Numbered from the stretch's first letter, positions 3,549 through 58,900 are shown. The stretch: DNA of 64,000 nucleotides from an uncultured Bacteroidaceae bacterium (GCA_964572225.1 CAZNFR010000006.1:533-64532), one strand, 5' to 3'. Notes: generated by a model from the sequence alone, not told the origin. Made by a program: numbers and translations.

Positions 3549-3637
3549 AAATTAATTTACGAATTTAGAAAAAATGAAAGGAAGAGTTCTATACTTGTCC
3601 AATAAACTTGGTATTTTTAAACCCAGGTCCGAAAACT

Positions 3638-4342
3638 ATGAGCGGAAAACTCTATTTAATCCCAAATACCCTTGGAGGGGAAAATTTGACGGAGATCCTT
3701 CCTCCTGCCCTTCCTTCCACTTTAAATCAAATTACCCATTATATAGTTGAAAATGAACGTAATGCAAGAAGGTTTTTGTTGAAATGCGGATACGACAGGG
3801 GAATTGACAATACCCAATTCTTTATTCTAAATAAACATACATCTGGCGGGGAAGTAGCCAAAATGCTTGATCCCTGCATTTCCGGAGAAGATATGGGTGT
3901 TATAAGTGAAGCGGGAATGCCCGGTATAGCCGACCCTGGTGCCGAAATTGTAGCTTTAGCTCATGCCAAACAAATAAAAGTAATTCCATTTACCGGGCCT
4001 TCTTCCATCATTCTTTCCCTTTCGGCCTCGGGATTCAACGGACAGGAATTTCGTTTTCACGGTTATCTGCCGGTTCAGGATAAACAAAGAGCAGCCAAAA
4101 TCCGGGAAATGTGTTTGGATATTTTCAAAAGCGGAGAAAGCCAGATCTTTATAGAAACCCCCTACCGGAATAATAATTTGCTTGAATCCCTGATTAAAAA
4201 TACCTCGCCCGGGATCAAACTGTGCGTGGCGTGTGACCTGACGCTGTCCACTGAATTCATCTCCACGAAAGAAATTCACAACTGGAAGAAACAAAAGCCG
4301 GACTTACATAAAAGACCGGCCGTATTTATTCTCGGAAAATAG
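3638..4342 (+). CDS. SAM-dependent methyltransferase with a tetrapyrrole-methylase (RsmI/YraL-like) fold
   Basis: The ORF track starts at TTG 3608; I prefer ATG 3638 (MSGKLYLIPNTLGG...). The N-terminal LYLIPxxLG and the ISEAGMPGIADPG motif are typical of this methylase superfamily. Confidence 0.65.
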   Translation: MSGKLYLIPNTLGGENLTEILPPALPSTLNQITHYIVENERNARRFLLKCGYDRGIDNTQFFILNKHTSGGEVAKMLDPCISGEDMGVISEAGMPGIADPGAEIVALAHAKQIKVIPFTGPSSIILSLSASGFNGQEFRFHGYLPVQDKQRAAKIREMCLDIFKSGESQIFIETPYRNNNLLESLIKNTSPGIKLCVACDLTLSTEFISTKEIHNWKKQKPDLHKRPAVFILGK

Positions 4343-10792: not shown

Positions 10793-11296
10793 TCAGGATC
10801 CGGCCCTTACAATTTCCCGGCTTAGTGCAGCCATTTTAATGGCAGTAATCGCGGCTTCATCCCCTTTATTTCCGTGTTTACCTCCAGACCTGTCAAGTGC
10901 TTGTTGCTGATCTCCGGTGGTAAGAATTCCAAAAATAAAAGGAAGAGAATAATCAAGGTTAAGATCCATGATTCCCTGGGTTACTCCCTGGCAAATAAAA
11001 TCAAAGTGCCGGGTCTCGCCCTGGATTACACATCCCAGGCATATTATGGCATCATAAATTCCCGTTTCTGCCATAAGCTGGGCAGCCAGAGGAATTTCAA
11101 AGCTTCCGGGAACCCAGCGAACATCAATCGATGCTCTTTTTACCCCTTGCTTCTCCAATGTACTCAAGGCTCCACTGAGAAGCGATCGGGTAACCTCAGG
11201 GTTCCATTCAGAAACGATCACCGCAAAACTCATATCGGATGCATCCGGAATATCTTCCGGATTATAATTGGATAAATTCTTAAGACTCGTAGCCAT
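10793..11296 (-). CDS. ribH: 6,7-dimethyl-8-ribityllumazine synthase
   Basis: FAVIVSEWNPEVT, VPGSFEIPLAA and DAIICLGCVIQGETRHFDFI are lumazine-synthase hallmarks. Confidence 0.9.
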   Translation of the reverse strand: MATSLKNLSNYNPEDIPDASDMSFAVIVSEWNPEVTRSLLSGALSTLEKQGVKRASIDVRWVPGSFEIPLAAQLMAETGIYDAIICLGCVIQGETRHFDFICQGVTQGIMDLNLDYSLPFIFGILTTGDQQQALDRSGGKHGNKGDEAAITAIKMAALSREIVRAGS

Positions 11297-11307
11297 ATGA
11301 TCGGGAT

Positions 11308-17952: not shown

Positions 17953-18636
17953 ATGCATATCGACATCATCACAGTCCTTCCGGAACTGTTCCTTGGGCCA
18001 TTGGAACATTCCATTATCAAAAGAGCCACAGATAAAGGCATTGCTAAGATCACACTCCATAATCTCAGGGATTTCAGCCTGGATAAGCATCGAAAAGTTG
18101 ACGATTATGCATTCAGTGGTGAAGCAGGAATGGTCCTTCAGATTGAGCCGGTAGACCGGGCGATTACACATCTGAAATCTCTCAGGGAATACGATGAGAT
18201 CATTTACACTTCCCCAGATGGTGAGAGGTATTCTCAAAAAACCGCGAACTATTTATCCACACTGACGAACATCATCCTGTTATGCGGACATTATAAGGGG
18301 GTTGACCACAGGATCAGAGAACACCTGATTACCAGGGAAATTTCCCTGGGCGACTTTGTTCTCACTGGGGGAGAACTGGTAGCTGCCGCGATTACCGACA
18401 GTATTGTCAGACTTCTGCCGGGGGCACTGGGAGATGAAACCTCAGCTCTGAATGATTCCTTCCAGGATGGTTTACTATCCCCACCAGTTTATACAAGGCC
18501 TGCCGACTACCATGGATGGAAAGTCCCTGAAGTCCTTCTTTCCGGAAATCCGGCAAAAATTAATGAATGGAAACATTTACAGGCGCTGGAACGGACAAGA
18601 AAACTTCGTCCGGATTTACTGGAAGGGGAACCCTAA
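17953..18636 (+). CDS. trmD: tRNA (guanine37-N1)-methyltransferase
   Basis: [13 protein letters not shown], the [13 protein letters not shown]-type motif, [13 protein letters not shown] and [13 protein letters not shown]. Confidence 0.9.
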
Positions 18637-21491
18637 TCCGCGAAATTTTTGACCGGATTGCGATGGCAGATCCCTGCGTAAGGACAATATAGGCACCTTT
18701 TTTCGTCCTGAGTCTGAGTGAAAGGAAGGTCGGGATTAAAAATCTCCGCTATCAGATCAGTCAGCTTCTCCTCAAATTCATTTTCAATTTTGTCGAACTC
18801 AATTTTTTCTGCCGGCTTTCCTAAAGTCGGATAAATGGTAAAAGAGTCACCAAATAGCTCAGGAGTTAGATAGATTGCAGGCACAAGCCGGGCACCTCTC
18901 TCCGATTTGGAAAAGATCCACGAATATATTAGTATTTGAAAAACCGCCTTATAATTTTTAGCCTTCCATGCATCCCGATCAAAAAGAAGATTCAATGAAT
19001 CTAGGGTTAACTCATTCTTCCCGGTTTTATAATCAATAATATGAACTTTCCCCTCTCTTTCATCCAGTCTGTCAATTTTGCCCCCCAGCCTGATACCTTT
19101 ACCCTCCTCCAGGGTTAGGTACTCATATATGATCTTCCTTTCCGAGTCCAGATAGCGAAAAGGGGTAAAATCAGTATCCCGGTCGATGGTTTTATAAATA
19201 AACTTCTTCATGACTTCAAAAGGAATAATGTTCCTCCCTTCGGGTTGAACAGGACTGGATTGCCCCATGATATTCAGGAATTCTTCTGTGAAAACCAGGT
19301 TCAGGACCTGTTCCACCATACCGGTTCTGATTTTAAGATCGTTTTGCTCAACCATTTTACCCTTCAGTTCTTCATATAAATATTCCATGGTCTTGTGATA
19401 AATATTCCCAAACCCTGCTGCATCTATCTCTTCTGAAACCTCGTCCTCTTCTTTAATCCCTGCAATATAGGAAAAGTAAAACCTCAACGAACAATCCAGA
19501 TAGGTTGCAAGAGCAGAGGGTGAGAGATAGGAATCCCCTTCTGAAGTGAACCTTTTTAATTCATGCATTATCCCTTCCTCTTTTGGAATTGTTATGGAAA
19601 CAGGCTTGGTCCCTTCAACCCTGTATCCCGTAGTCCTTTCCTCGACAGGAAAGGGATACAGGTACCTGAGTTGATGGATATACCTCGAAGGCTCTCCCTG
19701 TTTGAGTCCGTCACTCTTACTATTATAGTAAAGCGTAATATTTTCCGCTCTTTGTATTAACCGGTAAAAATAATAGGCATAAATTGCATCCTTATCCTCT
19801 CTTGTTGGCAGGCCAAAAGCAAATCTCAGATTCGCAGGGATGTAGGAAAAGTTCGGAAACCTTTCAGGCATTACCCCGTCATTGAGAGATAGAATATGAA
19901 CATTGTTGAAATCCAGAAGACGGGATTCCAAAATACCCATAATCTGTAACCCTTTGAGTGGTTCTCCATTGAAGGGGACTCGCAGCCCTCTGAACATTTT
20001 TCTTAGTAATCGAATATAACTGTCAAGTCCAATCTCAAATTCCAATCCCTCACTCAGACTTTCCAACTTGTTAATTCGGGTAAGTATATAAAAGATGTAT
20101 TCCCTTTCAAGGGCCATTTCTTTTTCACCTGAACCAGGTATTCTTTCAAGAAGAAACTTCCATAATTTTCGGAGATACGAGATCAGTTCGGCAGGCGATT
20201 GCATATAAGCAAAGATCAACCTCAGGAAGTCATTTCCGGTAAATAAATCTGCCGGAATAATAATCATGTTCCCTTTCCTGATTTTGTGGATGATCCGGTT
20301 GACATCCTCCCCTGCGAGTGATTGCATGTATTGGTGTGTCAAAATCATTAAAACATTCCGGTAATAATACCTTCCTTCTCCTTTGTTTATTCTCTGGTTT
20401 TGCTGCAGTTGAAGCAGAGAGTCCATAAAACTGAAGATGAGGGTATGTGTAAGTGGATAGCCCATACTAATGTTCAAATCAGGAATTCCTTCCGGGATGG
20501 ATGTTAATACCCCCGTCATTAATTCTTCATTTCCCAGTACAACAGCTGACACATTAAAGGACGTTGCCGAATTAGTTTTTAATTCCTCACCCAGTTTTTT
20601 GCATTGAAGAATGTCGGAAGGTATGTTGTGGATTTTAATATTCTTTTGAGTTGAAAGATTAGTAAAACCTGGATCGAAGTCCTTTTCCGGTGGAAAATTC
20701 CTAAGGTTCTCACGAATAAATCTTCCAGCTTCCTCGAATTCATTTTCGAGATAGCGCTTATCATAATCCCAATAAAATTCAGCCTTTCCGGCATCCATCA
20801 GGGTTTTAAAGAGCTTCATCTCACAACGATTCAGGGCGTTAAATCCAATAAATGCAACCCTGTCAAATGCATTACTCCACTCCAGAACATCCGATTTACC
20901 CTCAGCCACATGCCTGTATATCAATCCCTCATATCCAATCCTTTTCTCAAACAAATAGGCTCTGGTTTTTTCATAAACGGGATAAAGCAGGTCCCACATC
21001 CTCAGAAATTGTTCCTGGTGTTCTGAAAGGCTGCCGCTCCCAAAGAAACTCCAAAATCTTTTGATCAGTTCTTTTTGCTCATGGCTTAGATAATCAAAAC
21101 CTTCCTCCAGTTTTTTCAGGTCGGATACATTCGTAAACAAATCCCTGGCATTGATCAGGTAATTGTCAATATCGTTGAAATCCGTAATCATCATTTCTCC
21201 CCAGGGATAAAATTCATCGAAACTTTCCTGATTCCCTGATACCTGCCTGTAAACATTATATATAAGAAAGGATAACTCCAGGGGATCGGCCTCCGAGATT
21301 GCAGACGCTTCTGTCATGAAATCCTTAATCGTTTTAGTGGCAGGAACCCAACCGGGCTTTGAGGAATTTTGGGCATAATATCTGCGAAAAAACAAGGCGG
21401 ATCTGCGGTTGGGAAAAACAAAAAGCAGCTTGCCCTTTCTTTCATTATTCTTTATAAAATAGGTTGCCAATTCATTCAGAAAGTAATTCAT
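18633..21491 (-). CDS. AddB-like PD-(D/E)XK nuclease subunit
   Basis: 952 aa. The C-terminal nuclease core is [22 protein letters not shown]. It is flanked by a four-Cys pattern typical of the AddB iron-staple Fe-S cluster ([10 protein letters not shown] upstream, and [10 protein letters not shown] at the extreme C-terminus). It lies in the same operon-like block as the AddA-like helicase. Confidence 0.7.
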
Positions 21492-21496
21492 AAGTT

Positions 21497-22453
21497 CTAA
21501 TCGATGTTAGGATGATAATATTTTCCCTGCCAGGTATCTCGTTTTAGCAATAATTCTTCAAACGCTTTAAGTACAAGATCGTACCGCATCTTCCATGACT
21601 CTCGCAAATTATACTCAGGAACGGTTTCCCCTGCAATCCGGTCAATAAGGATTTCGGGTGACAGACGTTCAATAAACCGGACCATGAGGTCCAGATATTC
21701 GGAGAATGAAAATTCCGGAAACTTTAATGGATTTTTTAGATACTCATTTCCCATTAAGGTACCCCTGACCATCTGCAACTGATGAAATTTTAAATTATTT
21801 ATTGGAAGTGAGTTAAGGATTTCAGCCTGTTCGAGGATCTCTTTCCGGGTTTCACCGGGTAACCCGATTATCAGGTGACCGGTGGTAAAAATACCGGCTT
21901 TCTCTGCCCTGCATATAGCCTCCCTGGTGGTGGAAAAATCATGCCCTCTGTTAATGGCTTTCAGGGTATGATCATAACAGGACTCAATGCCGATTTCCAG
22001 ATTCAGGAACACCTCCTTGTTCAATTTTTCCAGAACCTTCATTACGGGTTCGGGCAGACAATCAGGTCTGGTTCCTATGGATAAAGCCACTACCCCTGGA
22101 TGGCCCAGTGCTTCTCTGTAAAGTTTTTCCAGATTTTCAGGAGTGTCGTAGGTATTTGAATATGCCTGAAAATAGACCATATAATTCTCAGCACTTTTGT
22201 ATCTTTTTCTGTGAAATTTTATTCCTTCCTGTATCTGTTTGTTGAGACTTCCCTCTTCCCTGCAATAGGAAGGATTAAATGCATGGTTATTGCAAAAACT
22301 GCAACCTCCTTCCCCAACCCTGCCATCCCGGTTGGGACAGGTAAATCCTGCATCCACACTTAATTTCTGTACTCTGCCTTCAAAACGTTTTTTTATGTAT
22401 GCGGAGTAAGAATTAAATCTCCTGTTTCCCGGGAAAGTTGGTAAATGATTCAT
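21497..22453 (-). CDS. Radical SAM protein, TIGR01212 (YhcC-like) family
   Basis: The N-terminal region RVQKLSVDAGFTCPNRDGRVGEGGCSFCN carries the extended Cys spacing I associate with the TIGR01212 family. A TIM-barrel-like remainder follows (YFQAYSNTY, LEIGIESC). Its ATG overlaps the upstream gene's stop (ATGA at 22450-22453). Confidence 0.8.
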   Translation of the reverse strand: MNHLPTFPGNRRFNSYSAYIKKRFEGRVQKLSVDAGFTCPNRDGRVGEGGCSFCNNHAFNPSYCREEGSLNKQIQEGIKFHRKRYKSAENYMVYFQAYSNTYDTPENLEKLYREALGHPGVVALSIGTRPDCLPEPVMKVLEKLNKEVFLNLEIGIESCYDHTLKAINRGHDFSTTREAICRAEKAGIFTTGHLIIGLPGETRKEILEQAEILNSLPINNLKFHQLQMVRGTLMGNEYLKNPLKFPEFSFSEYLDLMVRFIERLSPEILIDRIAGETVPEYNLRESWKMRYDLVLKAFEELLLKRDTWQGKYYHPNID

Positions 22454-25400
22454 CCTGCCTCTCTCATTCTTTTTAATAAAGGATACCAGACATAACCCCT
22501 CACATTTTTGTAGCCGGCGGCTTCCAATGCCATCACATAACGTTGTACCTGTTTCAGGTAACTGTCTCGCTCCTTGTCCCCGAACTTAAAATCAATAACC
22601 ATCACGCGACCATCCTTTACTACCACCCTGTCGGGCCTCAGGATGTTACCGCTTTCATCCACCAGGTCCTGCTCAGTTATAACCTCCCCCTCACCGTCAA
22701 ACCATTGCTTAAATGGGTTTTCCAAAATCAACCCTTTTATTTTCGCAACCCAATCATCCTTTTCCCCGGTAGAAAGGAGTCCTTTCATCCAGGCTTTACG
22801 AACAGCCGGCTCAATGTCTTCTTCTGTAATTATCATGGAAAAAATTTCGTGCATTTGTGTACCAAATCCAGCCGGGTCACTAAACTCTTCTTCCAGGCTT
22901 GAAAGGTAGATGTTCCGGTTATTTTTAAGAAGAGTTGGGGTGGAATTATGCACAGGGTAGTTTTCGGGGAAAGAGGTATAGTTTCCGCTTTTCTTCTCCG
23001 GGATGGGTAATTGTTCTTTCTCACCGAACGTGAAAAAATTATTCTCATCACTATAAACACCCCCTGGGAGTTTTGCCCCATTTTCCCCGGAGCCTTTGAG
23101 GATGTTCAGTAACAGGGTACCTATGCTTATTTCATTGGCATTTTCGGTTATCCCGGAAAAAGTATACAATTCCTTTTCGGCACGGGTAAAAGAAACATAC
23201 AATAAATTAATATTATCAATATATCCCATAAACGTTTCGTTCCAATATTCCTTGTGAAACATAGTATCTGAAAGCTTGCGGGAATAATTTACCGGAAGCA
23301 TGGGAAAAAAATGGAAAGGAGTTCCCTCCGGATTCACCCAGATCATGTTGTTTCTCGTTCCCGGAGTAAGTGCCCAGTCACAAAAAGGAATAATAACTGT
23401 TTTAAACTGCAATCCCTTGGCTTTATGAATGGTCATAATTCGCATGGCATCCTGAGCTTCCGATGCATTCAGCATCAGGTCATCTCCATAAATATCCCAA
23501 TACCTTAGAAAGGATGATATATCTCCGGTTTCCTCATTGAGGTAGTTTAATACAAAATCCTGGAAGGCCTGCAAATAGGCAATTTCGGAACTGTTTTTTC
23601 CAAGATCAAAGATCCGTATCAATTCTTCAAGCAATTCGAACAAGGGAAGTTTTTGTAGTTGTTCGTTCTGAATTCCTCTCTCTTCCAGGTAGAAATCCAT
23701 CTTAAACCTAAGGGAATCCTCATCAACGGAACTAAAAATCAAGTGAGGATTTGAAGGGATCACCTCTGTATTGAAAAAGTAAAAAAGTGCATGATTGAGG
23801 TAAGCATCATTGATTTTTTCACTTTGACCAGATATTTTCTTTAGCATTCCCAGGAGGAACCTTACCGAAGGATTATTACCGATATATAATGCATCATTGG
23901 AAATAATCGAATAATTATAATTCTTTTGCGATTCCTTCTTTTGTGAAAGTAGCATCTCCGCGATTATCCGTCCTTCAGCTTTGGTTCTAACCAAAAAGGT
24001 TATATCTCTGGGCCTTATGCCTCTTTCCTGCAGGTTTTCAACCAATTCAGGGATTCGTTGTTCGAGAAACTCCCTGTATTGATCCTGATTTTTCTTGAAA
24101 AAGAATTGAGATTCAACATAGCCCGAACTTATGATGCTCCCCTCCGGCAATTCCTGTTCGGTATTATCATATACTCTGTCGACAAGTTCAAGCCAATTAT
24201 CCAGAAACTCACCCTCCATTTTCGCTTCTTCCCACTTTTGCCTCATAGTGGATTGTACTTTTTTCGGAAGTAGGGTAAAAAATGAATTAAAGAACCTTAC
24301 CAGGTTTTTAGAACTTCGGTAATTTACCCTGAGGTATTCTTCTCTGATTTGATGCTTATGGACACGTTGATTCACCTCCGCAGCCAGTATCCTCCAGTCA
24401 CCATTCCGCCAACGGTAGATGGATTGTTTTACATCACCCACAATCAGGCTCGGCTGATCTTCCGATAAACCGTTTACAATCAATGGATAAAAATTATCCC
24501 ACTGAAAACGGGATGTATCCTGAAATTCATCAAGCATATACTTGTCAAAATAGTTTCCTGCTTTTTCAAAGATGAAGGGGGTATCGTTGCCCTCGATTAT
24601 TTTTTTCAGGAAAAAGGAAGAATCTGACAATAGAAAAATATTGTTTTCCAGACAAATCTCCCGAATGGAAGATGAAATATCCTTGAGTAAACCAAAAGTG
24701 TATATATTCTTTTGCAGTTCAATGGCGGTAAGGTATTCGGCCTTATTACCCTCCCAAAATTCAAGGTACTCAATCAACCTTTTCTGTAAACGAGTAGTTA
24801 CCAATTCCAGAATAGCCTCTCTGGATTTATGGGTTTTGGCGACCCACTCCAAGGGATCACCAGCTGCCTTTTTAACCGTATCAGTCGGTTCCGAACCATC
24901 TCTTGAAGCCTCTGCAACCCCTTTCAGGTACCCCAAAACTCCCGTACTCTTTCTCTTGAAATCCTCGATGGCAAACCCCTTCTCTTCAGCTATCTGTAGT
25001 ATGGCTGCCGCCATGACCTTCAATTTATTTTCTGTTGTCCTGATGATTTCATAGAGTTTTGATCTTAAGGATAGTAAGTTCTTTCTGTCCTCATCCTTAT
25101 CTCTGTTTTCACCCATCACTTCCTGGTAGTTTTCACTAAAAATTTCACGACCCAATTCAAACAGATAGGTCTCAATCTTCCAGTTCTTGTTTTCCAAAAG
25201 TTTCTCCTGTGTATAATCCAGAATCCATTCTTTGATTTGTCCGTCTGTATCCAGGCTTAGCAGAATACGTTCAATAGCCTCATTTAGGATATTATCCGGA
25301 TTTAATTCCAGATTATATCCGGTCTGAAGCCCAATCTCCCGCGTAAATCCGCGGATGACCCACTGAAAAAACCTGTCAATGGTCCCGACACTAAAGGCTG

Positions 25401-25707
25401 AATAATCGTTTAATATGATTTCCAGGGTTTTATGTGCCTTTTCTGCCAGGGAAGATTCGGTGAAAGAAGGGTTACTCTTTAAGAGGGATTCTTTATATCC
25501 GGCTACTTTAGGGTCATTTTTTGACAGCAGGTACAATGAAGAAATAATTCTTTCCTTCATTTCGTTGGAAGCCTTATTCGTAAAAGTAACTGCAAGAATC
25601 TTTCTATAGGAAAACGGATCCTCCATTAAGTGTTCCAGGTATTTAAGCGCTAGCTGATAGGTTTTTCCCGAACCCGCCGATGCTTTTAAAAGTGTGAGAT
25701 TACTCAT
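22450..25707 (-). CDS. AddA-like UvrD-family helicase with a C-terminal PD-(D/E)XK nuclease domain
   Basis: 1085 aa. Walker A KASAGSGKTY, DEFQDTS (motif II), VGDVKQSIYRWRNGD, TIHKAKGLQF, and a C-terminal nuclease motif LRPDRVVVKDGRVMVIDFKFG...YLKQVQRY. Confidence 0.75.
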   Translation of the reverse strand: MSNLTLLKASAGSGKTYQLALKYLEHLMEDPFSYRKILAVTFTNKASNEMKERIISSLYLLSKNDPKVAGYKESLLKSNPSFTESSLAEKAHKTLEIILNDYSAFSVGTIDRFFQWVIRGFTREIGLQTGYNLELNPDNILNEAIERILLSLDTDGQIKEWILDYTQEKLLENKNWKIETYLFELGREIFSENYQEVMGENRDKDEDRKNLLSLRSKLYEIIRTTENKLKVMAAAILQIAEEKGFAIEDFKRKSTGVLGYLKGVAEASRDGSEPTDTVKKAAGDPLEWVAKTHKSREAILELVTTRLQKRLIEYLEFWEGNKAEYLTAIELQKNIYTFGLLKDISSSIREICLENNIFLLSDSSFFLKKIIEGNDTPFIFEKAGNYFDKYMLDEFQDTSRFQWDNFYPLIVNGLSEDQPSLIVGDVKQSIYRWRNGDWRILAAEVNQRVHKHQIREEYLRVNYRSSKNLVRFFNSFFTLLPKKVQSTMRQKWEEAKMEGEFLDNWLELVDRVYDNTEQELPEGSIISSGYVESQFFFKKNQDQYREFLEQRIPELVENLQERGIRPRDITFLVRTKAEGRIIAEMLLSQKKESQKNYNYSIISNDALYIGNNPSVRFLLGMLKKISGQSEKINDAYLNHALFYFFNTEVIPSNPHLIFSSVDEDSLRFKMDFYLEERGIQNEQLQKLPLFELLEELIRIFDLGKNSSEIAYLQAFQDFVLNYLNEETGDISSFLRYWDIYGDDLMLNASEAQDAMRIMTIHKAKGLQFKTVIIPFCDWALTPGTRNNMIWVNPEGTPFHFFPMLPVNYSRKLSDTMFHKEYWNETFMGYIDNINLLYVSFTRAEKELYTFSGITENANEISIGTLLLNILKGSGENGAKLPGGVYSDENNFFTFGEKEQLPIPEKKSGNYTSFPENYPVHNSTPTLLKNNRNIYLSSLEEEFSDPAGFGTQMHEIFSMIITEEDIEPAVRKAWMKGLLSTGEKDDWVAKIKGLILENPFKQWFDGEGEVITEQDLVDESGNILRPDRVVVKDGRVMVIDFKFGDKERDSYLKQVQRYVMALEAAGYKNVRGYVWYPLLKRMREAG

Positions 25708-25903
25708 AAATGGTTGAATTTTCCATGTTTTGGATCAGCTTGCAATTTAACAGAATTGGTATCCCGGAATTAAAAATATTCGGTTATTTATCCGGTTATC
25801 CAGGAAATTCTTCAATGCATCCCTAAAAAATATAAAATTAATTAATTGTGTGTAATAATACTTTCTTAAATTGCCCCTAACCTAATCACAAAAATTCATC
25901 ATC

Positions 25904-26509
25904 ATGAAAAGAATTCTTCTCATTCTGGGATTTATTGCAGTTGTATTCACTTCGGGATACAGTCAGATGAACACCGGCAGCCTGTTCGCACTTGGGGTTG
26001 CTGAATTGAAAATGGAGGCATACAGGCAAAAACAAATCAATTCTGATTTTGATCCCACCAAAATCCTGAGTTTTGCTTTCAATCCTGCGGCAGGCTATTT
26101 TCTTGCCAACAGGGTTGCCGCGGGTATTATGATGAGCTATGCCTACCACCGACTTAAATACGAAGCTGCCAAAGACATCACAACCGCATTTCTATTGGGA
26201 CCATTTGCAAGATATTATTACCAGTACGGAGCCCTGGTTCCATTCGCTGAAATTTTTCTTGGCATAGGCAGAGAGAATTACAAGTATGTGTATGATACCG
26301 ATGGAATTGAAAATGAAAGTCCTCACAGGCTGTTCAAAGCATGGCTGGGGATTGGTGCTGCTTATTTTATTACTGAATATGTAGCCCTGGAAATGATCCT
26401 GAAGTATTTTTATGAAACCGCCAAACCTATTGATGCAGAGGGAGATGGGACCTCCTATAACGGATTGATTTTCTGTATTGGATTTGCCATTTTCTTCGGA
26501 AGCATATAA
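25904..26509 (+). CDS. Small outer-membrane beta-barrel (porin-family) protein
   Basis: Signal peptide (ILGFIAVVFTSGYSQ), alternating aromatic/aliphatic beta-strand pattern, C-terminal aromatic-rich strand. Confidence 0.6.
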   Translation: MKRILLILGFIAVVFTSGYSQMNTGSLFALGVAELKMEAYRQKQINSDFDPTKILSFAFNPAAGYFLANRVAAGIMMSYAYHRLKYEAAKDITTAFLLGPFARYYYQYGALVPFAEIFLGIGRENYKYVYDTDGIENESPHRLFKAWLGIGAAYFITEYVALEMILKYFYETAKPIDAEGDGTSYNGLIFCIGFAIFFGSI

Positions 26510-26585: not shown

Positions 26586-27764
26586 CTATCCTTCAATGAT
26601 ACCTGAACCTATCAACTCACCATCCTTGTACCACGCAGCAAATTGTCCACCCGCAATTCCTCGTTGGGGTTTCCTGAATCGTACGATCATACCTTCCTCC
26701 CTTTTATGTAGTTCTGCTTCCTGGAGAGATTGCCTGTATCGGATCCTGACCATGAAGTCCCTTCTTTCTCCGGTCTTCATGCTGCAGTCGGGTCGGACCC
26801 AATGAATATCATCCTTCCGTATGCGGAGGAAATCCCGGTACAAGCCTGGATGGTCCTGACCCTGGCCAACATACACAAGATTCTTCTCGGTATCGGTTTG
26901 CAAAACAAATAAAGGCTCTTTTTTTCCTCCAATGTTTAATCCTTTTCGTTGTCCGATTGTATAAAAGTGGGCACCGGAATGCTCACCGGTAATAAATCCG
27001 TCATTTTCATTATAGCGCGCAGGCTGATAATCAGAAAAATCCCCGTTCAAAGCAGTTTTCCCTATCAAATTAAATCCATCGACCGGAATCTCGATTACCT
27101 TTCCTTTTTTCGCCTCCAATTTTTGCTGAAGGAATGTTGGGAGGTCCACTTTCCCCACAAAACAAATTCCCTGCGAATCTTTCTTTTGAGCAGATGCAAG
27201 TTTTTGCTCCCGGGCTATTCTCCTGACCTCCGTTTTCATCAAATGACCAATGGGAAACAAGGTGCGGGCAAGCTGAGACTGCGACAACTGGCAGAGAAAA
27301 TAGCTTTGTTCCTTTCCCGGATCTCTTCCTTCCAAAAGCCGGTATACCTTTTTCCCTTCAATTTCTATTTCTTCCTTTCGGCAATAATGACCCGTAGCAA
27401 TGAAATCGGGCTTAAATTTTTCAGTTGCAGCAAAAAATTCATCGAACTTAATTTCGCGGTTGCATAAAACATCCGGATTGGGAGTTCGTCCGGCTTCATA
27501 CTCCCTGAACATATAATCAACCACTCTTTCCCTGTATTTCCCGCTCAAATCGACTACATGAAATGGAATATTGAGTTTTTTTGCTACCATTTCGGCAAAG
27601 GTCACATCCTCATCCCATGGACAATCCCCTTTCAGTACTCCTGTTTTATCGTGCCAGTTGACCATAAAAACAGCTGTTACCTCATAGCCCTGCTCCTTTA
27701 AAAGAAAGGCAGCAACACTGGAATCAACTCCCCCCGAAAGTCCAACTACAACCCGTTTCCTCAT
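26586..27764 (-). CDS. mnmA: tRNA 2-thiouridine(34) synthase
   Basis: PP-loop VVGLSGGVDSSVAA, DLPTFLQQKL, and catalytic-Cys context DSQGICFVG. Confidence 0.95.
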   Translation of the reverse strand: MRKRVVVGLSGGVDSSVAAFLLKEQGYEVTAVFMVNWHDKTGVLKGDCPWDEDVTFAEMVAKKLNIPFHVVDLSGKYRERVVDYMFREYEAGRTPNPDVLCNREIKFDEFFAATEKFKPDFIATGHYCRKEEIEIEGKKVYRLLEGRDPGKEQSYFLCQLSQSQLARTLFPIGHLMKTEVRRIAREQKLASAQKKDSQGICFVGKVDLPTFLQQKLEAKKGKVIEIPVDGFNLIGKTALNGDFSDYQPARYNENDGFITGEHSGAHFYTIGQRKGLNIGGKKEPLFVLQTDTEKNLVYVGQGQDHPGLYRDFLRIRKDDIHWVRPDCSMKTGERRDFMVRIRYRQSLQEAELHKREEGMIVRFRKPQRGIAGGQFAAWYKDGELIGSGIIEG

Positions 27765-29368: not shown

Positions 29369-30064
29369 TCATGAAAAACTTTCAATCTTCCCCATGTCTT
29401 TCCAGTCATCCGTATGAAGAAATAATCCTATCTTATGGCCCGTAGCTATCTTTAGAATTTCAGGCATTATGGGGAACACCTGCTGCCCGGGTAAGAGCTT
29501 AATAAATTGTTTTTCAACTATGTATATGGCACTGAATGCAATTTCTTCCATTCTCCCGTTTTTTCTTGAAAGGATTGTTTCTCCTGTATCCCTGTGTTTC
29601 CAGCCACAGAGCAATCTTTCTTCGTTCATCAAAAGATATCTGCTGGTTTCTCTGTATTTAACGGCCAGGGTGGCAATGTATTTATTCTGAATATGATGGG
29701 CCCATAATTCATTCAGGTTTAATCCTGTAAGAATATCAACATTATGAACGAGAATGGGACCCTCATCGAAAACAGATTCTGCTTTTTTCAATCCGCCACC
29801 GGTATCGAGCAGTAATTCGCTTTCATCGGATATTTGTATATCCAGTGTGGGAAATTCGCACCTTTTCAGGTAATCCACAACCTGATAAGCAAGGTGATGC
29901 ACATTAACAACTACTTTTGTAAACCCGTGGTTCGCAAGACTTCTGAGAACATAATAGATAAGTGGAAATCCATGGTATTCTAACAAAGCCTTGGGTTTGT
30001 TCTCCGTTAAGGGCCTCAACCGGGTCCCCAGTCCTGCTGCCATGATCATAGCCTGCTTTTTCAT
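29369..30064 (-). CDS. Sugar-1-phosphate nucleotidyltransferase, MurU-like
   Basis: N-terminal MIMAAGLGTRLRPLTENKPKALL (the GxGxRLxPLT nucleotidyltransferase signature). About 230 aa. Positioned directly downstream of an AmgK-like kinase gene, as in the amgK-murU salvage pair. Confidence 0.7.
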   Translation of the reverse strand: MKKQAMIMAAGLGTRLRPLTENKPKALLEYHGFPLIYYVLRSLANHGFTKVVVNVHHLAYQVVDYLKRCEFPTLDIQISDESELLLDTGGGLKKAESVFDEGPILVHNVDILTGLNLNELWAHHIQNKYIATLAVKYRETSRYLLMNEERLLCGWKHRDTGETILSRKNGRMEEIAFSAIYIVEKQFIKLLPGQQVFPIMPEILKIATGHKIGLFLHTDDWKDMGKIESFS

Positions 30065-30215: not shown

Positions 30216-31646
30216 TTAACTAATCAGATCCCTGTGCACCAGTTCTACTTCCACCTTATGGTTTTCTTTCAGATAAACGGCAAGATTTTCTGCAGCAAAA
30301 ACAGATCTGTGCCTTCCTCCTGTACAACCAAATGATACCTGTAAATGTTTATATTTATTGTCTTGATACGCGTTTATACTGCGATCAAGAATGCGGTAAA
30401 CGTCCTTGAGAAATGATTTCATTTCTGACCTTTCTTCGAAAAACCTTGCGATTTCCGGATCTTTTCCTGTAAATGACTTCCATTCCGGATATCTTCCGGG
30501 GTTATGGATCCCCCTGCAATCAAAAACAAACCCCCCTCCATTTCCACTGAGATCAGAAGGAATCCTTTTGCGGTAAGAAAAACTATTTATTCTTATTTTG
30601 AGATTTTCCGGCTTATCATCAAAGGTGTAATTCAATTCTTCTGAAGCGACCATCTTCAAAAACAATTTCGGTAACTCCTTAAGTCCGACAGGAATTTTAT
30701 TGTTGACCAAAAGCCATTCCAGGTTTTTCATGGCCCATGGAATACTCAACAAAAAAAGAGATTTGTTTTCAACCCAGCCTCTGAGTCCGTAAGTGCCCAG
30801 CGCCTGAAGTATCCTTATGAGAACAAAATCGTAATATCGCAAAAGGAATTGATCCCTGATCCCTGGCAAAACGATTTCCAGGCTTTGGAGGTAGTGATTC
30901 AGCAGTTCTTCTCTTTTTCTCGAGGGAAGAGCGGTTTTTGCTTCGAAAAGTAAGGAGGCTGGATCATACTGAAGAGCACCCTTCCTGCCACCCTGGAAAT
31001 CAATAAACCAGGGGGAACCCTGATAAATCATAATATTTCTGGATTGAAAATCCCGGTACATGAAAAAATCCCTTGGAGAATCCATTAGCCTTGCGGTCAG
31101 GGCTACGAAATCATCCTCCAGCTTCTGCTCGTCGAAATTAATGCCAGAAACCTTGAGAAAAAAGTATTTAAAATGGTTTAGGTCCCAAAGTACGGATTGG
31201 GCGTCAAATTCCTGTCTTGGAACACAAAACCTGTAGTCGATCTTGGAATGGGAGTGCACCTGGAATTGCACCAAATTTTCCAATGTGTTTCTGTAGAGAT
31301 CCCAGATATGCTGATTTTCATCGACAGGCCCGCCAGTAGCTTCCAGCTCCTGCTTCAGGCTTACATCACCGAGATCTTTCAGCAGGTAATATTCTTCCGA
31401 TGGATGAACTGCATATATTTCGGGTACCGGCAAACCTTCGGAAGTAAATGTTTTGCAAAAGGAAAGAAACGCCCGATTCTCGTTAATATAATCATTAAAA
31501 ACCCCGATGGCTGTAAGCTCACCCCCGGTCATCCTGAAGTATCGGCGATGAGAACCTGAAGGAGGAAGACTTTCGATGACTTCAGCATCGCGTCCGAATT
31601 TTCCCCTGAATAAAATATTGAGCTCATTTTTATGCATAGATTTCAC
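30216..31646 (-). CDS. Fusion protein: an AmgK-like (APH-fold) anomeric sugar kinase domain plus a RapZ-type C-terminal domain
   Basis: The N-terminal ~330 aa have the phosphotransferase-fold catalytic region YRDFQSRNIMIYQGSPWFIDFQGGRKGALQYDPASLL. The C-terminal ~140 aa (INSFSYRKRIPSD...GGGFVFDCRGIHNPGRY...TGKDPEIARFF...LQVSFGCTGGRHRSVFAAENLA) match the recalled E. coli RapZ C-domain motifs (SFGFKYGIP, VFDVRFLPNP, AIGCTGGKHRSV). The start is either GTG 31646 or, more likely, ATG 31637 (MHKNELN...). Confidence 0.75.
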   Translation of the reverse strand: MKSMHKNELNILFRGKFGRDAEVIESLPPSGSHRRYFRMTGGELTAIGVFNDYINENRAFLSFCKTFTSEGLPVPEIYAVHPSEEYYLLKDLGDVSLKQELEATGGPVDENQHIWDLYRNTLENLVQFQVHSHSKIDYRFCVPRQEFDAQSVLWDLNHFKYFFLKVSGINFDEQKLEDDFVALTARLMDSPRDFFMYRDFQSRNIMIYQGSPWFIDFQGGRKGALQYDPASLLFEAKTALPSRKREELLNHYLQSLEIVLPGIRDQFLLRYYDFVLIRILQALGTYGLRGWVENKSLFLLSIPWAMKNLEWLLVNNKIPVGLKELPKLFLKMVASEELNYTFDDKPENLKIRINSFSYRKRIPSDLSGNGGGFVFDCRGIHNPGRYPEWKSFTGKDPEIARFFEERSEMKSFLKDVYRILDRSINAYQDNKYKHLQVSFGCTGGRHRSVFAAENLAVYLKENHKVEVELVHRDLIS

Positions 31647-38037: not shown

Positions 38038-39990
38038 ATGATCAAAATAACATTACCTGATAATTCGGTACGAGAGTATAATGCGGGAATAACCGGACAG
38101 GAAATTGCGGAAAGTATCAGCAGTGGCCTTGCAAAGCAGGTTTTGGCCATTAGCGTGAATGATGAAATATGGGACCTCTCCCGACCCATTCAACAAGACG
38201 CCAGAATTAAACTTCATAAATGGGAGGATCCAGAAGCCAGGCATGCCTTCTGGCATTCGTCTGCTCACCTGATGGCTGAAGCCATTGAATCACTTTATCC
38301 GGGAACCAAATTTGGGATCGGTCCGGCTATCGAAAACGGATTCTATTATGATGTGGATCCTGTAAACAATACCCAGATCTCGGATTCGGACCTGCCTGAG
38401 ATCGAGAATAAAATGAAAGAATTGGCCTCAAAAAAGGAACAATTCAGAAGAAGGGAGGTTAGCAAAAAAGAAGCCCTGGAATACTGGAGAAAAAAAGGAG
38501 ATGAATACAAGCTGGAACTAATCAACGATCTTGAGGACGGAACCATCAGTTTTTATGAACAAGGAGACTTTACAGATTTGTGCCGCGGTCCCCACTTACC
38601 CGAAACTTCCCCAATTAAGGCTATTAAACTCCTGAGTGTTGCAGGGGCTTACTGGAGGGGAGATGAAAAAAGGAAAATGCTGACCCGAATCTACGGGATC
38701 ACCTTCCCAAAGCAAAAACAGCTGGATGAATACCTTGAAATGCTTGAAAAGGCAAAAGAAAGGGACCATCGTAAAGTGGGGCGGGAACTTGAACTTTTTA
38801 CTTTTTCTCAACGGGTTGGAGCAGGTCTTCCCCTTTGGCTGCCCAAAGGGGCACAACTTAGAGAGAAACTCGAAAGTTTTCTCAAGAAGGTTCAGGTGGA
38901 GCACGGTTATCAACCCGTTATTACACCGCATATCGGACAGAAAGAACTGTGGGTTACTTCCGGACATTATGCAAAATACGGAAAGGATTCGTTTAAACCC
39001 ATAAGCACCCCACAGGAAGGAGAGGAATTTCTGTTAAAACCAATGAACTGTCCCCATCATTGTGAGATCTATCGAACCCATCAACATAGTTATAAAGACC
39101 TTCCCATCCGATATGCTGAATTTGGCACTGTCTACAGGTACGAACAAAGTGGTGAACTTCATGGGCTTACAAGGGTTAGAGGATTTACTCAGGATGATGC
39201 TCATATATTCTGCCGGCCCGACCAGCTAAAGGATGAATTTAAAAAGGTCATTGATATTATACTCTATATATTTAAAGCACTTGATTTTCAGGATTATACA
39301 GCTCAAATCTCCCTGAGGGACAAAAATGATCAGGAAAAATACATAGGTTCAGATGAGAATTGGGAGAAAGCAGAGCAAGCCATCATTGAGGCCTCGGAAG
39401 AAAAGGGTCTTTACACCACCATAGAGTGCGGTGAAGCCGCCTTCTACGGGCCAAAACTGGATTTTATGGTAAGGGACGCCATCGGAAGAAAATGGCAACT
39501 GGGAACCATTCAGGTTGATTATAATCTACCCGAACGATTCGATCTTGAATATGTGGGATCCGATAATGAAAAACACCGCCCCATCATGATTCACAGGGCT
39601 CCCTTTGGTTCCATGGAACGCTTTGTGGCCGTATTGATTGAACATACGGGTGGAAAATTTCCCCTGTGGCTTACCCCGGATCAGGCAGTAATTCTTCCTA
39701 TCAGTGAAAAATTTCAGGATTATGCGGAAAAAGTTTCAAATTTGCTAAATAATTACGATATTCGCACACTCATTGACGAGAGGAACGAAAAGATAGGTAA
39801 AAAGATAAGGGACAACGAGTTAAAGCGAATTCCATACCTTCTAATTGTAGGCGAAAAGGAGGAAAATTCCCAAACAGTTTCCGTTCGCAGGCAGGGAGAA
39901 GGGGATAAAGGCATTATGAGCATTGAAAATTTTGCTGAATTTATCCAGTCTGAAATTCGGGACCAGCTCGCTGCAATTGAGAAAAATTAA
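38038..39990 (+). CDS. thrS: Threonine--tRNA ligase
   Basis: TGS domain start ([14 protein letters not shown]), editing-domain HSSAHLMA, class II core ([24 protein letters not shown]) and the anticodon-binding tail. Confidence 0.95.
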
Positions 39991-51587: not shown

Positions 51588-51957
51588 GATGTATCCTCCT
51601 GCCTTAATATCTGATAAATTAATTTTTTTTAACATTCTGTTTAATGAAAAACAAATACTATACCAAAATGATTTGCCTTCTGCTTTTTAACAATAACCGG
51701 TCTCTCGCGGATCAATTTACATTTTTATTACGGAAAACCGAATGTTTGGGTTGATTTTAACGTGAAATTCCGGGAACGGAGATCCTCCTGAACAGTTTAG
51801 GATGGCAGATTTCTGCTCTAATCCCATTTATATTTCGAGAATAGGATTTTATTTTTTTAATTTGCGGTTCCTTTATGCCGTGCAATAGATCCGGCCTGAA
51901 ATAGTCCTGGAAAGGGCATAAAGATTGTTAAACCGAATATTACATATCCCAAAAAAT

Positions 51958-53433
51958 ATGGCCAAAGTTCTTACTCCTGCTGAAGAGAATTATTCTCAAT
52001 GGTACAATGATATTGTGATTAAAGCTGATCTGGCGGAATACTCTGCTGTTCGTGGCTGTATGGTAATAAAGCCCTATGGGTATGCCATTTGGGAAAAAAT
52101 GCAGGCGGTACTTGATAAAATGTTTAAGGATACAGGTCATCAGAACGCCTATTTTCCTCTTTTTATCCCAAAGTCTTTTTTTAGCAAAGAGGCCAACCAT
52201 GTGGAGGGATTTGCTAAGGAATGTGCGGTAGTTACGCATTATCGTCTTAAAAACGATGAAGAGAAAGGAGGGGTTAAAGTAGATCCCGACGCCAGACTGG
52301 AAGAAGAATTGATTATCCGGCCCACTTCCGAAACCATCATCTGGAATACCTACAAAAACTGGATACAATCCTACAGGGACCTGCCTATTCTGGTTAACCA
52401 ATGGGCCAATGTTGTTCGCTGGGAAATGAGAACCCGACTCTTTCTAAGAACTGCAGAGTTCCTATGGCAGGAAGGACATACCGCCCATGCCACAGAAAAA
52501 GAAGCGGTAGAGGAAACGCTCAGAATGTTAAATGTCTATTCAACATTTGCCAGGGAATGGATGGGAGTACCTGTAATTGAAGGTAAAAAATCGGAAAGTG
52601 AAAAATTTGCGGGGGCCATAGACACCTATTGCATTGAAGCTCTTATGCAGGATGGGAAAGCGTTACAGGCTGGAACTTCTCACTTCCTGGGACAAAATTT
52701 TGCAAAAGCATTCGATGTGCAATTTACCAATCAGGAAGGGAAACTGGAATACGTTTGGGCTACATCCTGGGGAGTTTCCACCCGACTAATGGGTGCCCTC
52801 ATAATGGCCCATTCAGATAATAACGGTCTGGTGTTGCCCCCTAAGCTTGCACCTATTCAGGTGGTTATTGTGCCTATCTATAAAAGTGAAGAGCAGCTTA
52901 ACCTAATTTCCGAAAAAGCCAATTTCATTAAAAATGCACTAACAGAGGCCGGAATTTCGGTAAAATATGACGACAGGGATACTCATAAACCCGGATGGAA
53001 ATTTGCCGAATATGAACTCAAAGGAGTCCCGGTGAGACTTGCCCTGGGGCCCAGGGACCTTGAAAACGGCACCGTGGAAGTGGCCCGAAGGGATAAGCTT
53101 GAAAAAGTATCCCTTTCATCGGATAATATCGCAGAGTATTGTAAAGATCTACTGGATGATATTCAAAATAACATCTATTCTAAAGCCTTACATTTCCGTG
53201 AGAATATGACCTTCTCAGTGGATACACAAGAAGAATTCATAAAGGTAATCGAAGAAAAAGGGGGATTCATAAAAACCTGGTGGGATGGAACTCCTGAAAC
53301 CGAAGAAAAAGTGAAGGAAATGACCAAAGCAACAATTCGCTGTATACCCTTTGGTGAAAGTAAGGAGACGGGAATCGACCCTTTCAGCCAAAAAGAAGGT
53401 AAATTTCAGGTTCTCTATGCAAGAGCATATTGA
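51958..53433 (+). CDS. proS: Proline--tRNA ligase (archaeal/eukaryotic-like type)
   Basis: The ORF track starts at 51925; I prefer ATG 51958 ([20 protein letters not shown]). Class II motifs ([35 protein letters not shown]) are present, and the sequence ends in the conserved C-terminal Tyr (YARAY). Confidence 0.9.
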
Positions 53434-57562: not shown

Positions 57563-58900
57563 ATGCAAAACTCTTTTGCACAATACCTCAATGAAATCAT
57601 CCCTGTTAACCAAGGATCCCGATTCCTTTTGGCAGTTTCAGGAGGCATTGATTCTGTAGTAATGCTGGACCTTTTCGCCCAGATGGAAAATATCGAGTTC
57701 GGCATTGCCCATTGCAATTTTGGCTTGAGAGGCGCTGAATCGGATGAGGATGAAAATCTGGTTCAGGAGCTCGGGGAAAGATATCATTGCAAAACATACG
57801 TCAAACTATTTGATACCATGACCTTTGCAGAGAATCACAGAATCTCGGTTCAAATGGCTGCCAGAACTCTGAGGTACGCCTGGTTTTCTTCACTGGCAGA
57901 AAGTGAGAATTGGGATTACATACCTGTAGCTCACAATAAAAACGACCGGATAGAAACATTCTTTATTAATCTTCTAAGGGGAACCGGAATTAAGGGACTT
58001 ACTTCGATTCCACACAGGAACCAAAAAATCATCCGTCCTCTGTTGAAATACGACAGGAAACAAATTGAAGAATACGCCATCAACCGGAGGCTGGTTTGGA
58101 GGGAAGATTCCAGCAACAGGTCGGTGAAATATACCCGGAATAAAATCAGACACGAGATCATTCCCATCTTCACTGACCTTAATCCCGGGTTTCTTTCCAC
58201 CATGGAAGAAAATATAGGAAGGATTGAGCAAATGGAATGGATCTTCGATCAAATCCTTGCCGAAAAAAAAGAGGCCCTGCTAACAAAAAAAGAAAACCAT
58301 ACTTTGATTTCGTTGGATGAACTACGAAATAATCCACTTTCTTCACTTTGGTTATTTGAGATACTCAGCGATTATGGATTCTCCGGCAAAATGATCGGAG
58401 ACATTGATAAAAGCCGATTTTCCGAGTCAGGAAAAAGATTCTTTTCCCGCGAATATGAACTGACAAAGGATAGAGATTTTTTTATTCTAAGGAAAATTGA
58501 AAAGAATGAGGATACGCCCCGGAAATATTACATCGATTCTGAGGTGAAAAACCTATCAACACCGATAAACCTTGAAATCGATGTGCTCAGCAGATCTGAC
58601 TTCGTCCTGACTTCGAATCAAAATATTGCCTGCCTCGATCTGGACAAGGTTTCTTTTCCTCTTATCCTCAGAAAATGGAAACACGGTGATTATTTTCGCC
58701 CCCTGGGTATGAAAGAAATGAAGAAATTAAGTGATTTCTTTATAGACAATAAAGTATCCTTGCCTGAAAAACAAGACACCTGGATTCTTGCCAGTGGCGA
58801 TGATATAATTTGGATTGTGGGTCAAAGGATCGATGACCGGTTCAAAGTAAGTTCTGAAACAACAAAAGTCCTGATGATAACCTGCCATAATGAGGATTAG
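57563..58900 (+). CDS. tilS: tRNA(Ile)-lysidine synthase
   Basis: PP-loop LLAVSGGIDSVVM, HCNFGLRG, and the conserved C-terminal TilS region (RKWKHGDYFRPLGM, WIVGQRIDDRF). Confidence 0.9.
   Translation: MQNSFAQYLNEIIPVNQGSRFLLAVSGGIDSVVMLDLFAQMENIEFGIAHCNFGLRGAESDEDENLVQELGERYHCKTYVKLFDTMTFAENHRISVQMAARTLRYAWFSSLAESENWDYIPVAHNKNDRIETFFINLLRGTGIKGLTSIPHRNQKIIRPLLKYDRKQIEEYAINRRLVWREDSSNRSVKYTRNKIRHEIIPIFTDLNPGFLSTMEENIGRIEQMEWIFDQILAEKKEALLTKKENHTLISLDELRNNPLSSLWLFEILSDYGFSGKMIGDIDKSRFSESGKRFFSREYELTKDRDFFILRKIEKNEDTPRKYYIDSEVKNLSTPINLEIDVLSRSDFVLTSNQNIACLDLDKVSFPLILRKWKHGDYFRPLGMKEMKKLSDFFIDNKVSLPEKQDTWILASGDDIIWIVGQRIDDRFKVSSETTKVLMITCHNED

Follow-up and report, generated by a model that had tools for sequence, protein, structure and literature searches.

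An MnmL-family radical SAM gene nested between addA and addB: a lineage-restricted gene order in Bacteroidales, probably inherited without a role in DNA repair

The genes addA and addB, which encode the two subunits of a helicase-nuclease that processes double-strand breaks, are adjacent in most bacteria. In an uncultured Bacteroidaceae bacterium they are separated by a third gene, which encodes a radical S-adenosylmethionine (SAM) protein of the TIGR01212 family, also known as the MnmL/YtqA/YhcC family. Here we analyse this three-gene unit within a 64,000-nucleotide stretch of DNA (GCA_964572225.1 CAZNFR010000006.1:533-64532), hereafter the window, to whose full length all positions refer unless a locus is named; the three genes are read on its minus strand. 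Judged by its gene anatomy, family memberships and distribution, the arrangement is a real, conserved and lineage-restricted gene order. It is likely that the middle gene is a housekeeping MnmL/YtqA/YhcC orthologue nested in the addAB unit, an inherited gene order in a subset of Bacteroidales, and no component of DNA repair. An earlier note on this DNA had proposed a functional link between the radical SAM protein and DNA end processing, a proposal that the evidence presented below does not support.

The ORF list of the window contains three consecutive minus-strand open reading frames (ORFs), with exactly the coordinates that the earlier note had given for its AddA-like, radical SAM and AddB-like genes (Table 1). 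The lengths of the three proteins (1085, 318 and 952 aa) are also recorded for called genes in a public protein collection. On the minus strand the AddA gene ends in ...GGCAGGATGA, with the ATG of the radical SAM gene inside its ATGA, and the junction as a whole reads ...GGCAGGATGAATCAT..., the ATGA lying at 22453-22450. The radical SAM gene closes with TAG, followed by AACTT and then by the ATG of AddB, and both the overlap and the 5-nt spacer that had been described are thus confirmed by ORF coordinates and by direct reading of the sequence. As such, addA and addB are co-oriented and non-adjacent, with the 957 nt of the radical SAM gene between them. Neither junction is an artefact of start-codon choice. 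Upstream of the conserved R12 of the radical SAM protein, the stretch that follows the AddA stop offers no alternative start codon, and the next ATG is codon 92, so the overlap is independent of the start chosen, and the start of AddB is backed by the near-invariant residues F4 and L5 of its homologues. Spacing of this kind suggests that the three genes are co-transcribed and translationally coupled.

The family membership of the radical SAM protein is clear. It matches TIGR01212 in NCBIfam with 288.5 bits against a cutoff of 180, over positions 1-300 of the 302 in the model, and in Pfam both PF04055 (Radical_SAM) and PF16199 (Radical_SAM_C) score above cutoff. The protein is 28.5% identical to Escherichia coli YhcC by alignment, and its cluster cysteines, C39-x11-C51-x2-C54, correspond to C33, C45 and C48 of YhcC and are at least 90% conserved among 80 homologues. 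Basic positions of the proposed tRNA-binding cleft are likewise retained. The column of YhcC K21 (R27 in the window protein) holds R or K in 80/80 sequences, and the column beside YhcC R279 (window R290, with a one-column alignment offset) holds R in 23/23 copies encoded behind AddA and R or K in 51/57 others. The closest solved structures found by a sequence search of the PDB are those of Elp3 (E 3e-7).

TIGR01212 had been described in the earlier note as a family without established function, and this is outdated: its members make 5-aminomethyl-2-thiouridine (nm5s2U) from 5-carboxymethylaminomethyl-2-thiouridine (cmnm5s2U) on transfer RNA (tRNA), and the NCBIfam name is now 'tRNA modification radical SAM protein MnmL/YtqA' (IPR005911). 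Genetics in Bacillus subtilis and Streptococcus mutans showed that YtqA/MnmL is required for the synthesis of 5-methylaminomethyl-2-thiouridine (mnm5s2U; Jaroch et al., bioRxiv 10.1101/2023.12.21.572861). The E. coli protein YhcC binds tRNA, converts cmnm5s2U-tRNA to nm5s2U-tRNA in vitro and stands in for MnmC under anaerobiosis (Boswinkle et al., bioRxiv 10.64898/2026.05.18.725915). The family is proposed to contact its nucleic acid, tRNA, via a basic cleft, and organisms that possess MnmL only tend to be anaerobes (bioRxiv 10.64898/2026.05.18.725915). Data S7 of the same work places Bacteroidia family members in genomes with a stand-alone MnmC2 (13/15 and 3/3), which is the pattern expected if MnmL supplies the missing MnmC1 step. 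By homology to MnmL/YtqA/YhcC, the window protein would convert cmnm5(s2)U34 to nm5(s2)U34.

The published gene contexts of the family lie elsewhere: in Firmicutes ytqA is fused to mnmM or paired with it; in Gammaproteobacteria yhcC stands beside arcB, and in E. coli it is under FNR control. The main text of both MnmL papers (10.1101/2023.12.21.572861, 10.64898/2026.05.18.725915) contains no mention of AddA, AddB, a helicase or any term beginning Bacteroid-, and a literature search on TIGR01212 returned nothing linking the family to AddAB. In the supplement of the former paper, AddA and AddB are mentioned only within a 35-gene KEGG cluster around the YtqA homologue of Tumebacillus avium (Bacilli), an entry that gives cluster membership only and neither order nor distances (supplementary files 7 and 10). 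For subgroups with no fusion or clustering link, the same paper calls for experimental testing (bioRxiv 10.1101/2023.12.21.572861).

The AddA and AddB assignments are sound. AddA matches UvrD-helicase (9e-33) and UvrD_C in Pfam, with weak C-terminal matches to PDDEXK_1 and Cas4. It carries the Walker A motif GSGKT at residue 12 and, within its last 60 residues, the IDFK and QxxxY motifs of a RecB-type nuclease; its best solved relative in a PDB sequence search is B. subtilis AddA (3U44_A, 2e-16). AddB matches PDDEXK_1 in Pfam at 2e-33. Among 24 homologues C667, C933, C936, C942, D807, D820 and K822 are invariant and Y821 is nearly so (at least 90%). C667 and the C933-x2-C936-x5-C942 group flank D807 and D820-Y-K822 and form a predicted iron staple, so that the four-cysteine pattern (C...CxxCx5C) noticed earlier holds across the homologues. 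PDB sequence and profile searches with AddB gave no match. Its AlphaFold model (pLDDT 83.8, pTM 0.66) was searched with Foldseek, and ranks 1-5 were all B. subtilis AddB (4CEJ_B, 3U4Q_B, 3U44_B, 4CEI_B and 4CEH_B), with E values of 3e-25 to 3e-24 and TM scores of 0.61-0.65 normalised to the query. The curated equivalog cutoffs were missed by addA_Gpos (110.7 versus 707.65), addB_Gpos (64.7 versus 903.7) and addB_alphas (60.2 versus 486.5), models built on Gram-positive or alphaproteobacterial sequences, that is, on other phyla. AddB of Bacteroides fragilis is functional though only 16% identical to that of B. subtilis (PMC2887965). Pfam, NCBIfam, motif and fold evidence therefore uphold all three family assignments of the earlier note.

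The distribution of the arrangement was surveyed around the radical SAM gene in one genome per species, giving 80 loci (numbered with the prefix L) with up to 10 kb on each side, which were mapped by tblastn and ORF calling. AddA lies upstream on the same strand in 22 of the 80, and the radical SAM gene is elsewhere in the other 58. By longest-ORF calls, the junction between AddA and the radical SAM gene falls between -49 and +29 nt in 20 of the 22 loci, and 13 of the 22 have a value of -4, -1 or 0 nt. L013 has a gap of 1250 nt, and L012 was left out of the measure, its AddA being fragmented; this AddA is split across three reading frames, possibly through decay or through an assembly error in a metagenome-assembled genome (MAG). 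The gap from the radical SAM gene to AddB is -17 to +97 nt in 12 loci and 235-355 nt in another 3. In a further 3, AddB comes only after an inserted gene, and the insert is a Peptidase_C92-like gene (L004) or a 540-aa gene on the opposite strand (L010, L034). The junction between the radical SAM gene and AddB ranges from -17 nt to 1939 nt in relatives, and some of the gaps contain inserted genes. No AddB was found within 10 kb in two of the loci with AddA (L013, L040). In L011, AddB is without residues of about 480-669, and here too decay or a MAG assembly error is possible.

The 58 loci without AddA show other partners. In 25 of them a POT-family transporter gene lies directly upstream on the same strand. 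The distance from this POT/PTR2 peptide transporter gene to the radical SAM gene is 2-209 nt in the 24 of these loci where it was measured; the pairing is as common as that with AddA, and the function of the partner is just as unrelated. A convergent GPP34-family gene stands downstream of the radical SAM gene in 14 loci. In 9 loci of Bacteroides and Phocaeicola a flavodiiron-type gene follows on the same strand, 8-33 nt downstream in most of them and with an apparent overlap in L066. The flavodiiron-type protein combines an ODP beta-lactamase fold with a flavodoxin and is an oxygen or nitric oxide detoxification enzyme of anaerobes, and its pairing with mnmL is reminiscent of E. coli yhcC, which is tied to anaerobiosis through its arcB neighbourhood and FNR control. 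Neither AddA nor AddB was found near the radical SAM gene in the 7 loci labelled Firmicutes, Planctomycetes or Neomarinimicrobiota, and within the survey the arrangement behind AddA did not recur outside Bacteroidales-type loci.

Searches centred on AddA and AddB give a similarly mixed picture. Scanning metagenomes with AddB yielded only 15 loci, many being short. The full order of AddA, radical SAM gene and AddB is present in L094, L095 and L097, and L083, which is cut upstream, shows the radical SAM gene and AddB only. In six metagenome loci (L087-L091, L093) AddA is directly followed by AddB with nothing between, in L092 the two are divergent, and at several other metagenome loci the sequence available upstream of AddB holds neither AddA nor a radical SAM gene. 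The AddB of cultured Labilibaculum and Marinifilum lies behind a Peptidase_C92 gene with no AddA nearby, and the AddA of Marinifilum is likewise solitary. AddB is also solitary on two further large contigs, on one of which (L099) it is followed by TrmD and DUF349, as it is in the window. Directly upstream of AddB in L004, L081 and L082 stands a gene for Peptidase_C92 (permuted papain-like). Conversely, L101, whose AddB is 47% identical to that of the window, keeps the window's order from MnmA to YidC, and in L103, whose AddA is 36% identical, MnmA is followed in turn by AddA, the radical SAM gene and AddB. Roughly 30 among the best AddA homologues lie on contigs equal in size to that of a best radical SAM homologue, which suggests that many more instances of the AddA-radical SAM pair exist.

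That addA and addB are normally adjacent, as the earlier note had held, is true of B. fragilis and of the six metagenome loci with nothing between them; it does not hold where the genes are solitary (Labilibaculum, Marinifilum and others) or divergent (L092). Since this adjacency is not fixed in the phylum, the insertion of a third gene is a weak argument for a meaningful association. The gene-neighbourhood comparison that had been proposed as a check on the functional link came out largely against it, with the radical SAM gene elsewhere in 58 of the 80 loci and with B. fragilis addA and addB adjacent and sufficient for function. A hedge in the same note, that the order might be a lineage-specific accident, comes close to the survey result. 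With 22 loci of 80, the order is no accident of one genome.

The 80 homologues were aligned together with E. coli YhcC, and 23 copies behind AddA were compared with 57 others. Sixty columns are at least 90% conserved in both groups, and no column of the alignment separates the two groups at the 85% / 15% level. The 120 best radical SAM homologues are all stand-alone proteins of 280-340 aa with no fusions, and a radical SAM domain is present in 0/120 of the best AddA homologues. None of the assemblies behind the 80 loci gave two full-length radical SAM loci; a partial second copy of the C-terminal region lies 1.9 kb downstream of the full gene in L044, perhaps through decay or assembly error. 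A neofunctionalised paralogue was considered and rejected, there being no discriminating columns and no genome with two full-length loci.

Regarding the origin of the order, the guanine-cytosine (GC) content of the radical SAM gene is 41.9%, against 40.6% in its neighbours, and codon usage also matches. On this native composition and on the conserved synteny of L101, a recent horizontal insertion was rejected. In a neighbour-joining tree of the radical SAM proteins, the AddA-linked loci form at least five well-supported pure clades (bootstrap 100, 100, 92, 92 and 76), and the deep nodes that interleave AddA-linked and POT-linked clades have 3-15% bootstrap support. The Fitch minimum of changes in arrangement state is 3 to 9 over replicates. 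A single old insertion followed by losses fits these data, and a few independent events are also compatible with them.

Taken as a housekeeping orthologue, the middle gene would encode a [4Fe-4S]/SAM enzyme that takes the carboxymethyl group off cmnm5(s2)U34 to leave nm5(s2)U34, acting as an oxygen-independent substitute for MnmC1. Its place between addA and addB would date from an ancestor shared by a subset of Bacteroidales, most of them uncultured. With no space for a promoter of its own, mnmL is probably transcribed from the addA promoter, and it is probably translated by re-initiation at the ATGA overlap. The order would then have been inherited within a slowly rearranging housekeeping block, MnmA - AddA - MnmL - AddB - TrmD - HSP20 - DUF349 - PyrG - YidC. 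AddA and AddB would form a normal break-resection enzyme of the B. fragilis type, for which the radical SAM protein would be dispensable. Because mnmL would have no promoter space, parting from addA would silence it, and such promoter dependence on addA can by itself account for the AddA junction being the most persistent of the arrangement.

Several points weigh against this explanation. The junction between AddA and the radical SAM gene is strikingly persistent (13 of 22 at -4, -1 or 0 nt), a pattern that a functional operon would also give. It survives at 36-48% AddA/AddB identity and in at least five well-supported subclades, and L013 and L040, from which AddB has moved away, keep it too. 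The MnmL function of the Bacteroidia subgroup would follow from homology to tested members elsewhere. MnmA is encoded in the window, and MnmE, MnmG and MnmC2 were not found among the scanned ORFs of its 64 kb. Lastly, the E. coli host in which B. fragilis AddAB was tested carries its own YhcC, so that a helper role is excluded only by the activity of the enzyme in vitro.

It is possible, and in our view rather unlikely, that the order reflects adaptive co-regulation without physical interaction, mnmL being kept on the addAB transcript through, for example, a shared stress, growth-rate or iron/oxygen regime, much as in the mutL-miaA-hfq operon of E. coli. In its favour, deeply diverged loci keep the adjacency to AddA, with the stop and start codons overlapping. 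Both AddB and the radical SAM protein are predicted iron-sulfur (Fe-S) proteins, and oxygen-related neighbours are found elsewhere, namely the flavodiiron-type gene in Bacteroides and Phocaeicola and arcB with FNR control in E. coli. However, the partner of the gene varies by lineage, being a POT transporter, a flavodiiron-type gene or AddA, which argues against a specific regulatory logic, and non-operonic neighbours are similarly conserved, as seen in L101 and in the presence of MnmA at about half of the loci.

That the radical SAM protein has a direct role in break repair is very improbable. Under this alternative it would be a third component that matures or repairs the AddB iron staple, modifies AddA or AddB, or acts at DNA ends. 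What speaks for it is position between addA and addB, apparent translational coupling and conservation in 22 genome loci, along with the ability of the family to bind a nucleic acid, tRNA, through its basic cleft. The related idea that in this group of Bacteroidales an MnmL-type protein was recruited, possibly beside its tRNA role, to double-strand-break processing, where it might preserve the Fe-S staple of AddB or work on nucleic acid at the break, with the overlap reflecting stoichiometric co-production, seems to us equally improbable. Against a repair role stand the established function of the family in tRNA modification and the lack of fusions and of residues peculiar to the copies behind AddA. 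Many relatives have AddA and AddB without the radical SAM gene or have the three genes apart, and the interval from the radical SAM gene to AddB tolerates inserted genes (L004, L010, L034). The absence of a second copy from any of the 80-locus genomes means that this copy must serve the housekeeping need, although that is weak evidence. In B. fragilis, addA and addB are adjacent; as a pair they rescue recBCD mutants of E. coli, and the two purified proteins together show activity (PMC2887965). A mechanistic repair link is thus disfavoured because AddAB of this type works alone, because sister lineages attach the radical SAM gene to unrelated partners and because in Marinifilaceae the three genes lie apart from one another. 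We infer that no mechanistic link joins the radical SAM protein to AddAB, and the functional connection to DNA end processing proposed earlier is left unsupported, with no fusions, no AddA-specific residues and no recurrence outside Bacteroidales-type loci. Finally, the survey refutes a chance order, an assembly artefact or a recent insertion peculiar to one genome, for which the sole argument is that gene order near addA and addB is generally fluid in this phylum. Independent assemblies show the same order in 22 genome loci, in 4 metagenome loci and in both L101 and L103, and the composition and codon usage of the gene match its neighbours.

The flanks of the unit are listed in Table 1. The divergent region upstream of AddA is its presumed promoter region. 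A sigma-70 and terminator scan of the DNA showed no excess over shuffled sequence (24 versus 19.2 +/- 4.2 and 13 versus 8.5 +/- 3.1, respectively), with models that do not represent Bacteroidota promoters and are uninformative on internal promoters. MnmA is encoded just upstream of AddA in 10 of the genome loci with the AddA-radical SAM pair (about half), as well as in L101 and L103. The proximity of mnmA, which lies two genes away in the window and whose product thiolates the same wobble uridine that MnmL targets, is consistent with a tRNA role; it is limited to the same syntenic block and hence is not independent evidence. The 201-aa protein encoded divergently from AddA has homologues at the equivalent position in L001, L002, L018 and L095, and the counterpart position in L101 holds a 201-aa gene with a weak OMP_b-brl match. 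On the other side, TrmD and AddB share 4 nt at their 3' ends, so that a terminator would not fit between them, and the order AddB-TrmD(-DUF349) persists even where AddB is solitary (L099).

Table 1. Features of the window and of the surveyed loci, with their positions
Feature	Position	Strand	Basis
AddA-like helicase-nuclease, 1085 aa, first gene of the unit	22450..25707	-	Pfam, motifs, PDB relative
ATGA, AddA stop TGA overlapping radical SAM start ATG	22450..22453	-	direct sequence reading
TIGR01212 / MnmL (YtqA, YhcC) family radical SAM protein, 318 aa	21497..22453	-	TIGR01212, PF04055, PF16199
Spacer AACTT, 5 nt, radical SAM stop to AddB start	21492..21496	-	direct sequence reading
AddB-like nuclease subunit, 952 aa, four predicted iron-staple cysteines	18633..21491	-	PDDEXK_1, invariant residues, AlphaFold/Foldseek
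Divergent intergenic region, 196 nt, presumed promoter region of the unit	25708..25903	.	only sizeable non-coding gap upstream of AddA
201-aa protein, N-terminal signal peptide, divergent from AddA	25904..26509	+	no Pfam or NCBIfam match
MnmA, tRNA 2-thiouridine(34) synthase	26586..27764	-	NF001138, 420 bits versus cutoff 284
TrmD, tRNA (m1G37) methyltransferase, convergent with AddB	17953..18636	+	NF000648, 288.5 bits versus cutoff 220
RsmI-like	3608..4342		
ThrS	38038..39990		
ProS	51925..53433		
TilS	57563..58900		
MurU-like gene	29369..30064	-	
476-aa ORF, AmgK-like and RapZ regions	30216..31646	-	RapZ match below cutoff
Signal peptidase I paralogue, 443 aa	42113..43444	+	
Signal peptidase I paralogue, 462 aa	43451..44839	+	
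Peptidase_C92 gene directly upstream of AddB	L004:7657-8364; L081:9308-9985; L082:9326-9985		
AddA split across three reading frames	L012:6761-9959		
AddB without residues of about 480-669	L011:10924-13370		
Partial second copy of radical SAM C-terminal region	L044:12850-13164		
POT/PTR2-radical SAM loci	L003, L005, L008, L014, L016, L020, L022-L024, L026, L028-L033, L036, L039, L042-L045, L048, L053, L059		
Flavodiiron-type loci	L050, L051, L055, L056, L061, L062, L064, L066, L068; about 10920-12140 in most		

Elsewhere the window has ordinary housekeeping content: RecF, YidC, PyrG, TrmD, CysH, MurU, ThrS, IF-3, DapB, signal peptidases, ProS, TilS and aro genes. The window as a whole is rich in genes for tRNA and translation (MnmA, MnmL, TrmD, TilS, RsmI-like, ThrS, ProS and IF-3). 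Two of its features are unusual in themselves. The 476-aa ORF beside the MurU-like gene joins an N-terminal AmgK-like (MurNAc/GlcNAc kinase) region to a C-terminal match to the second half of RapZ, an RNase adapter (residues 337-474, 104 bits, below cutoff), which is an unusual domain combination. Directly after dapB there are tandem signal peptidase I paralogues of unusual length.

Like MnmL/YtqA of B. subtilis and S. mutans and YhcC of E. coli, the radical SAM protein has Radical_SAM and Radical_SAM_C domains, the Cx11Cx2C motif, basic cleft residues and a stand-alone size of about 310-320 aa, and its occurrence near mnmA, in a lineage of probable anaerobes, agrees with the phylogenetic distribution published for the family. 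Its gene differs in context, lying between addA and addB and not with mnmM as in Firmicutes or arcB as in Gammaproteobacteria. The radical SAM domain of Elp3, which takes part in the formation of the 5-carboxymethyl (cm5) group at U34 of tRNA, is similar in having a Radical_SAM_C domain and in acting at C5 of the wobble uridine, but Elp3 has a GNAT acetyltransferase domain and builds the side chain, whereas MnmL has no GNAT domain and trims it. E. coli mutL-miaA-hfq offers a parallel for the gene order, as it places DNA-repair and tRNA-modification genes on one transcript with no complex formed. There, however, the genes and the phylum are other, and in the window the tRNA gene splits the two subunits of one enzyme. 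As in AddAB of B. fragilis (BF2192/BF2191) and B. subtilis (PDB 3U44, 4CEJ), AddA is a superfamily 1 (SF1) helicase joined to a RecB-type nuclease. AddB shares with its B. fragilis counterpart (C674/C946/C949/C955; PMC2887965) the arrangement of one distal and three C-terminal cysteines (CxxCx5C) at similar spacing. The predicted AddB fold best matches AddB of B. subtilis, whose AddA is also the best solved AddA relative. In B. fragilis the two genes are adjacent, whereas in the window a third gene stands between addA and addB.

For the study of DNA repair, a radical SAM protein that works with AddAB would be a matter of real interest, if it were true, which is unlikely. If the housekeeping explanation holds, the label 'function unknown' of TIGR01212 is corrected and little else changes. 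The unit would add one more lineage-specific context for mnmL beside those with mnmM in Firmicutes and arcB in Gammaproteobacteria, and the proximity of mnmA gives modest physical-clustering support for the MnmL annotation in Bacteroidales. For the phylum as a whole, addA and addB form no fixed two-gene unit in Bacteroidota, which is relevant to automated annotation based on operons.

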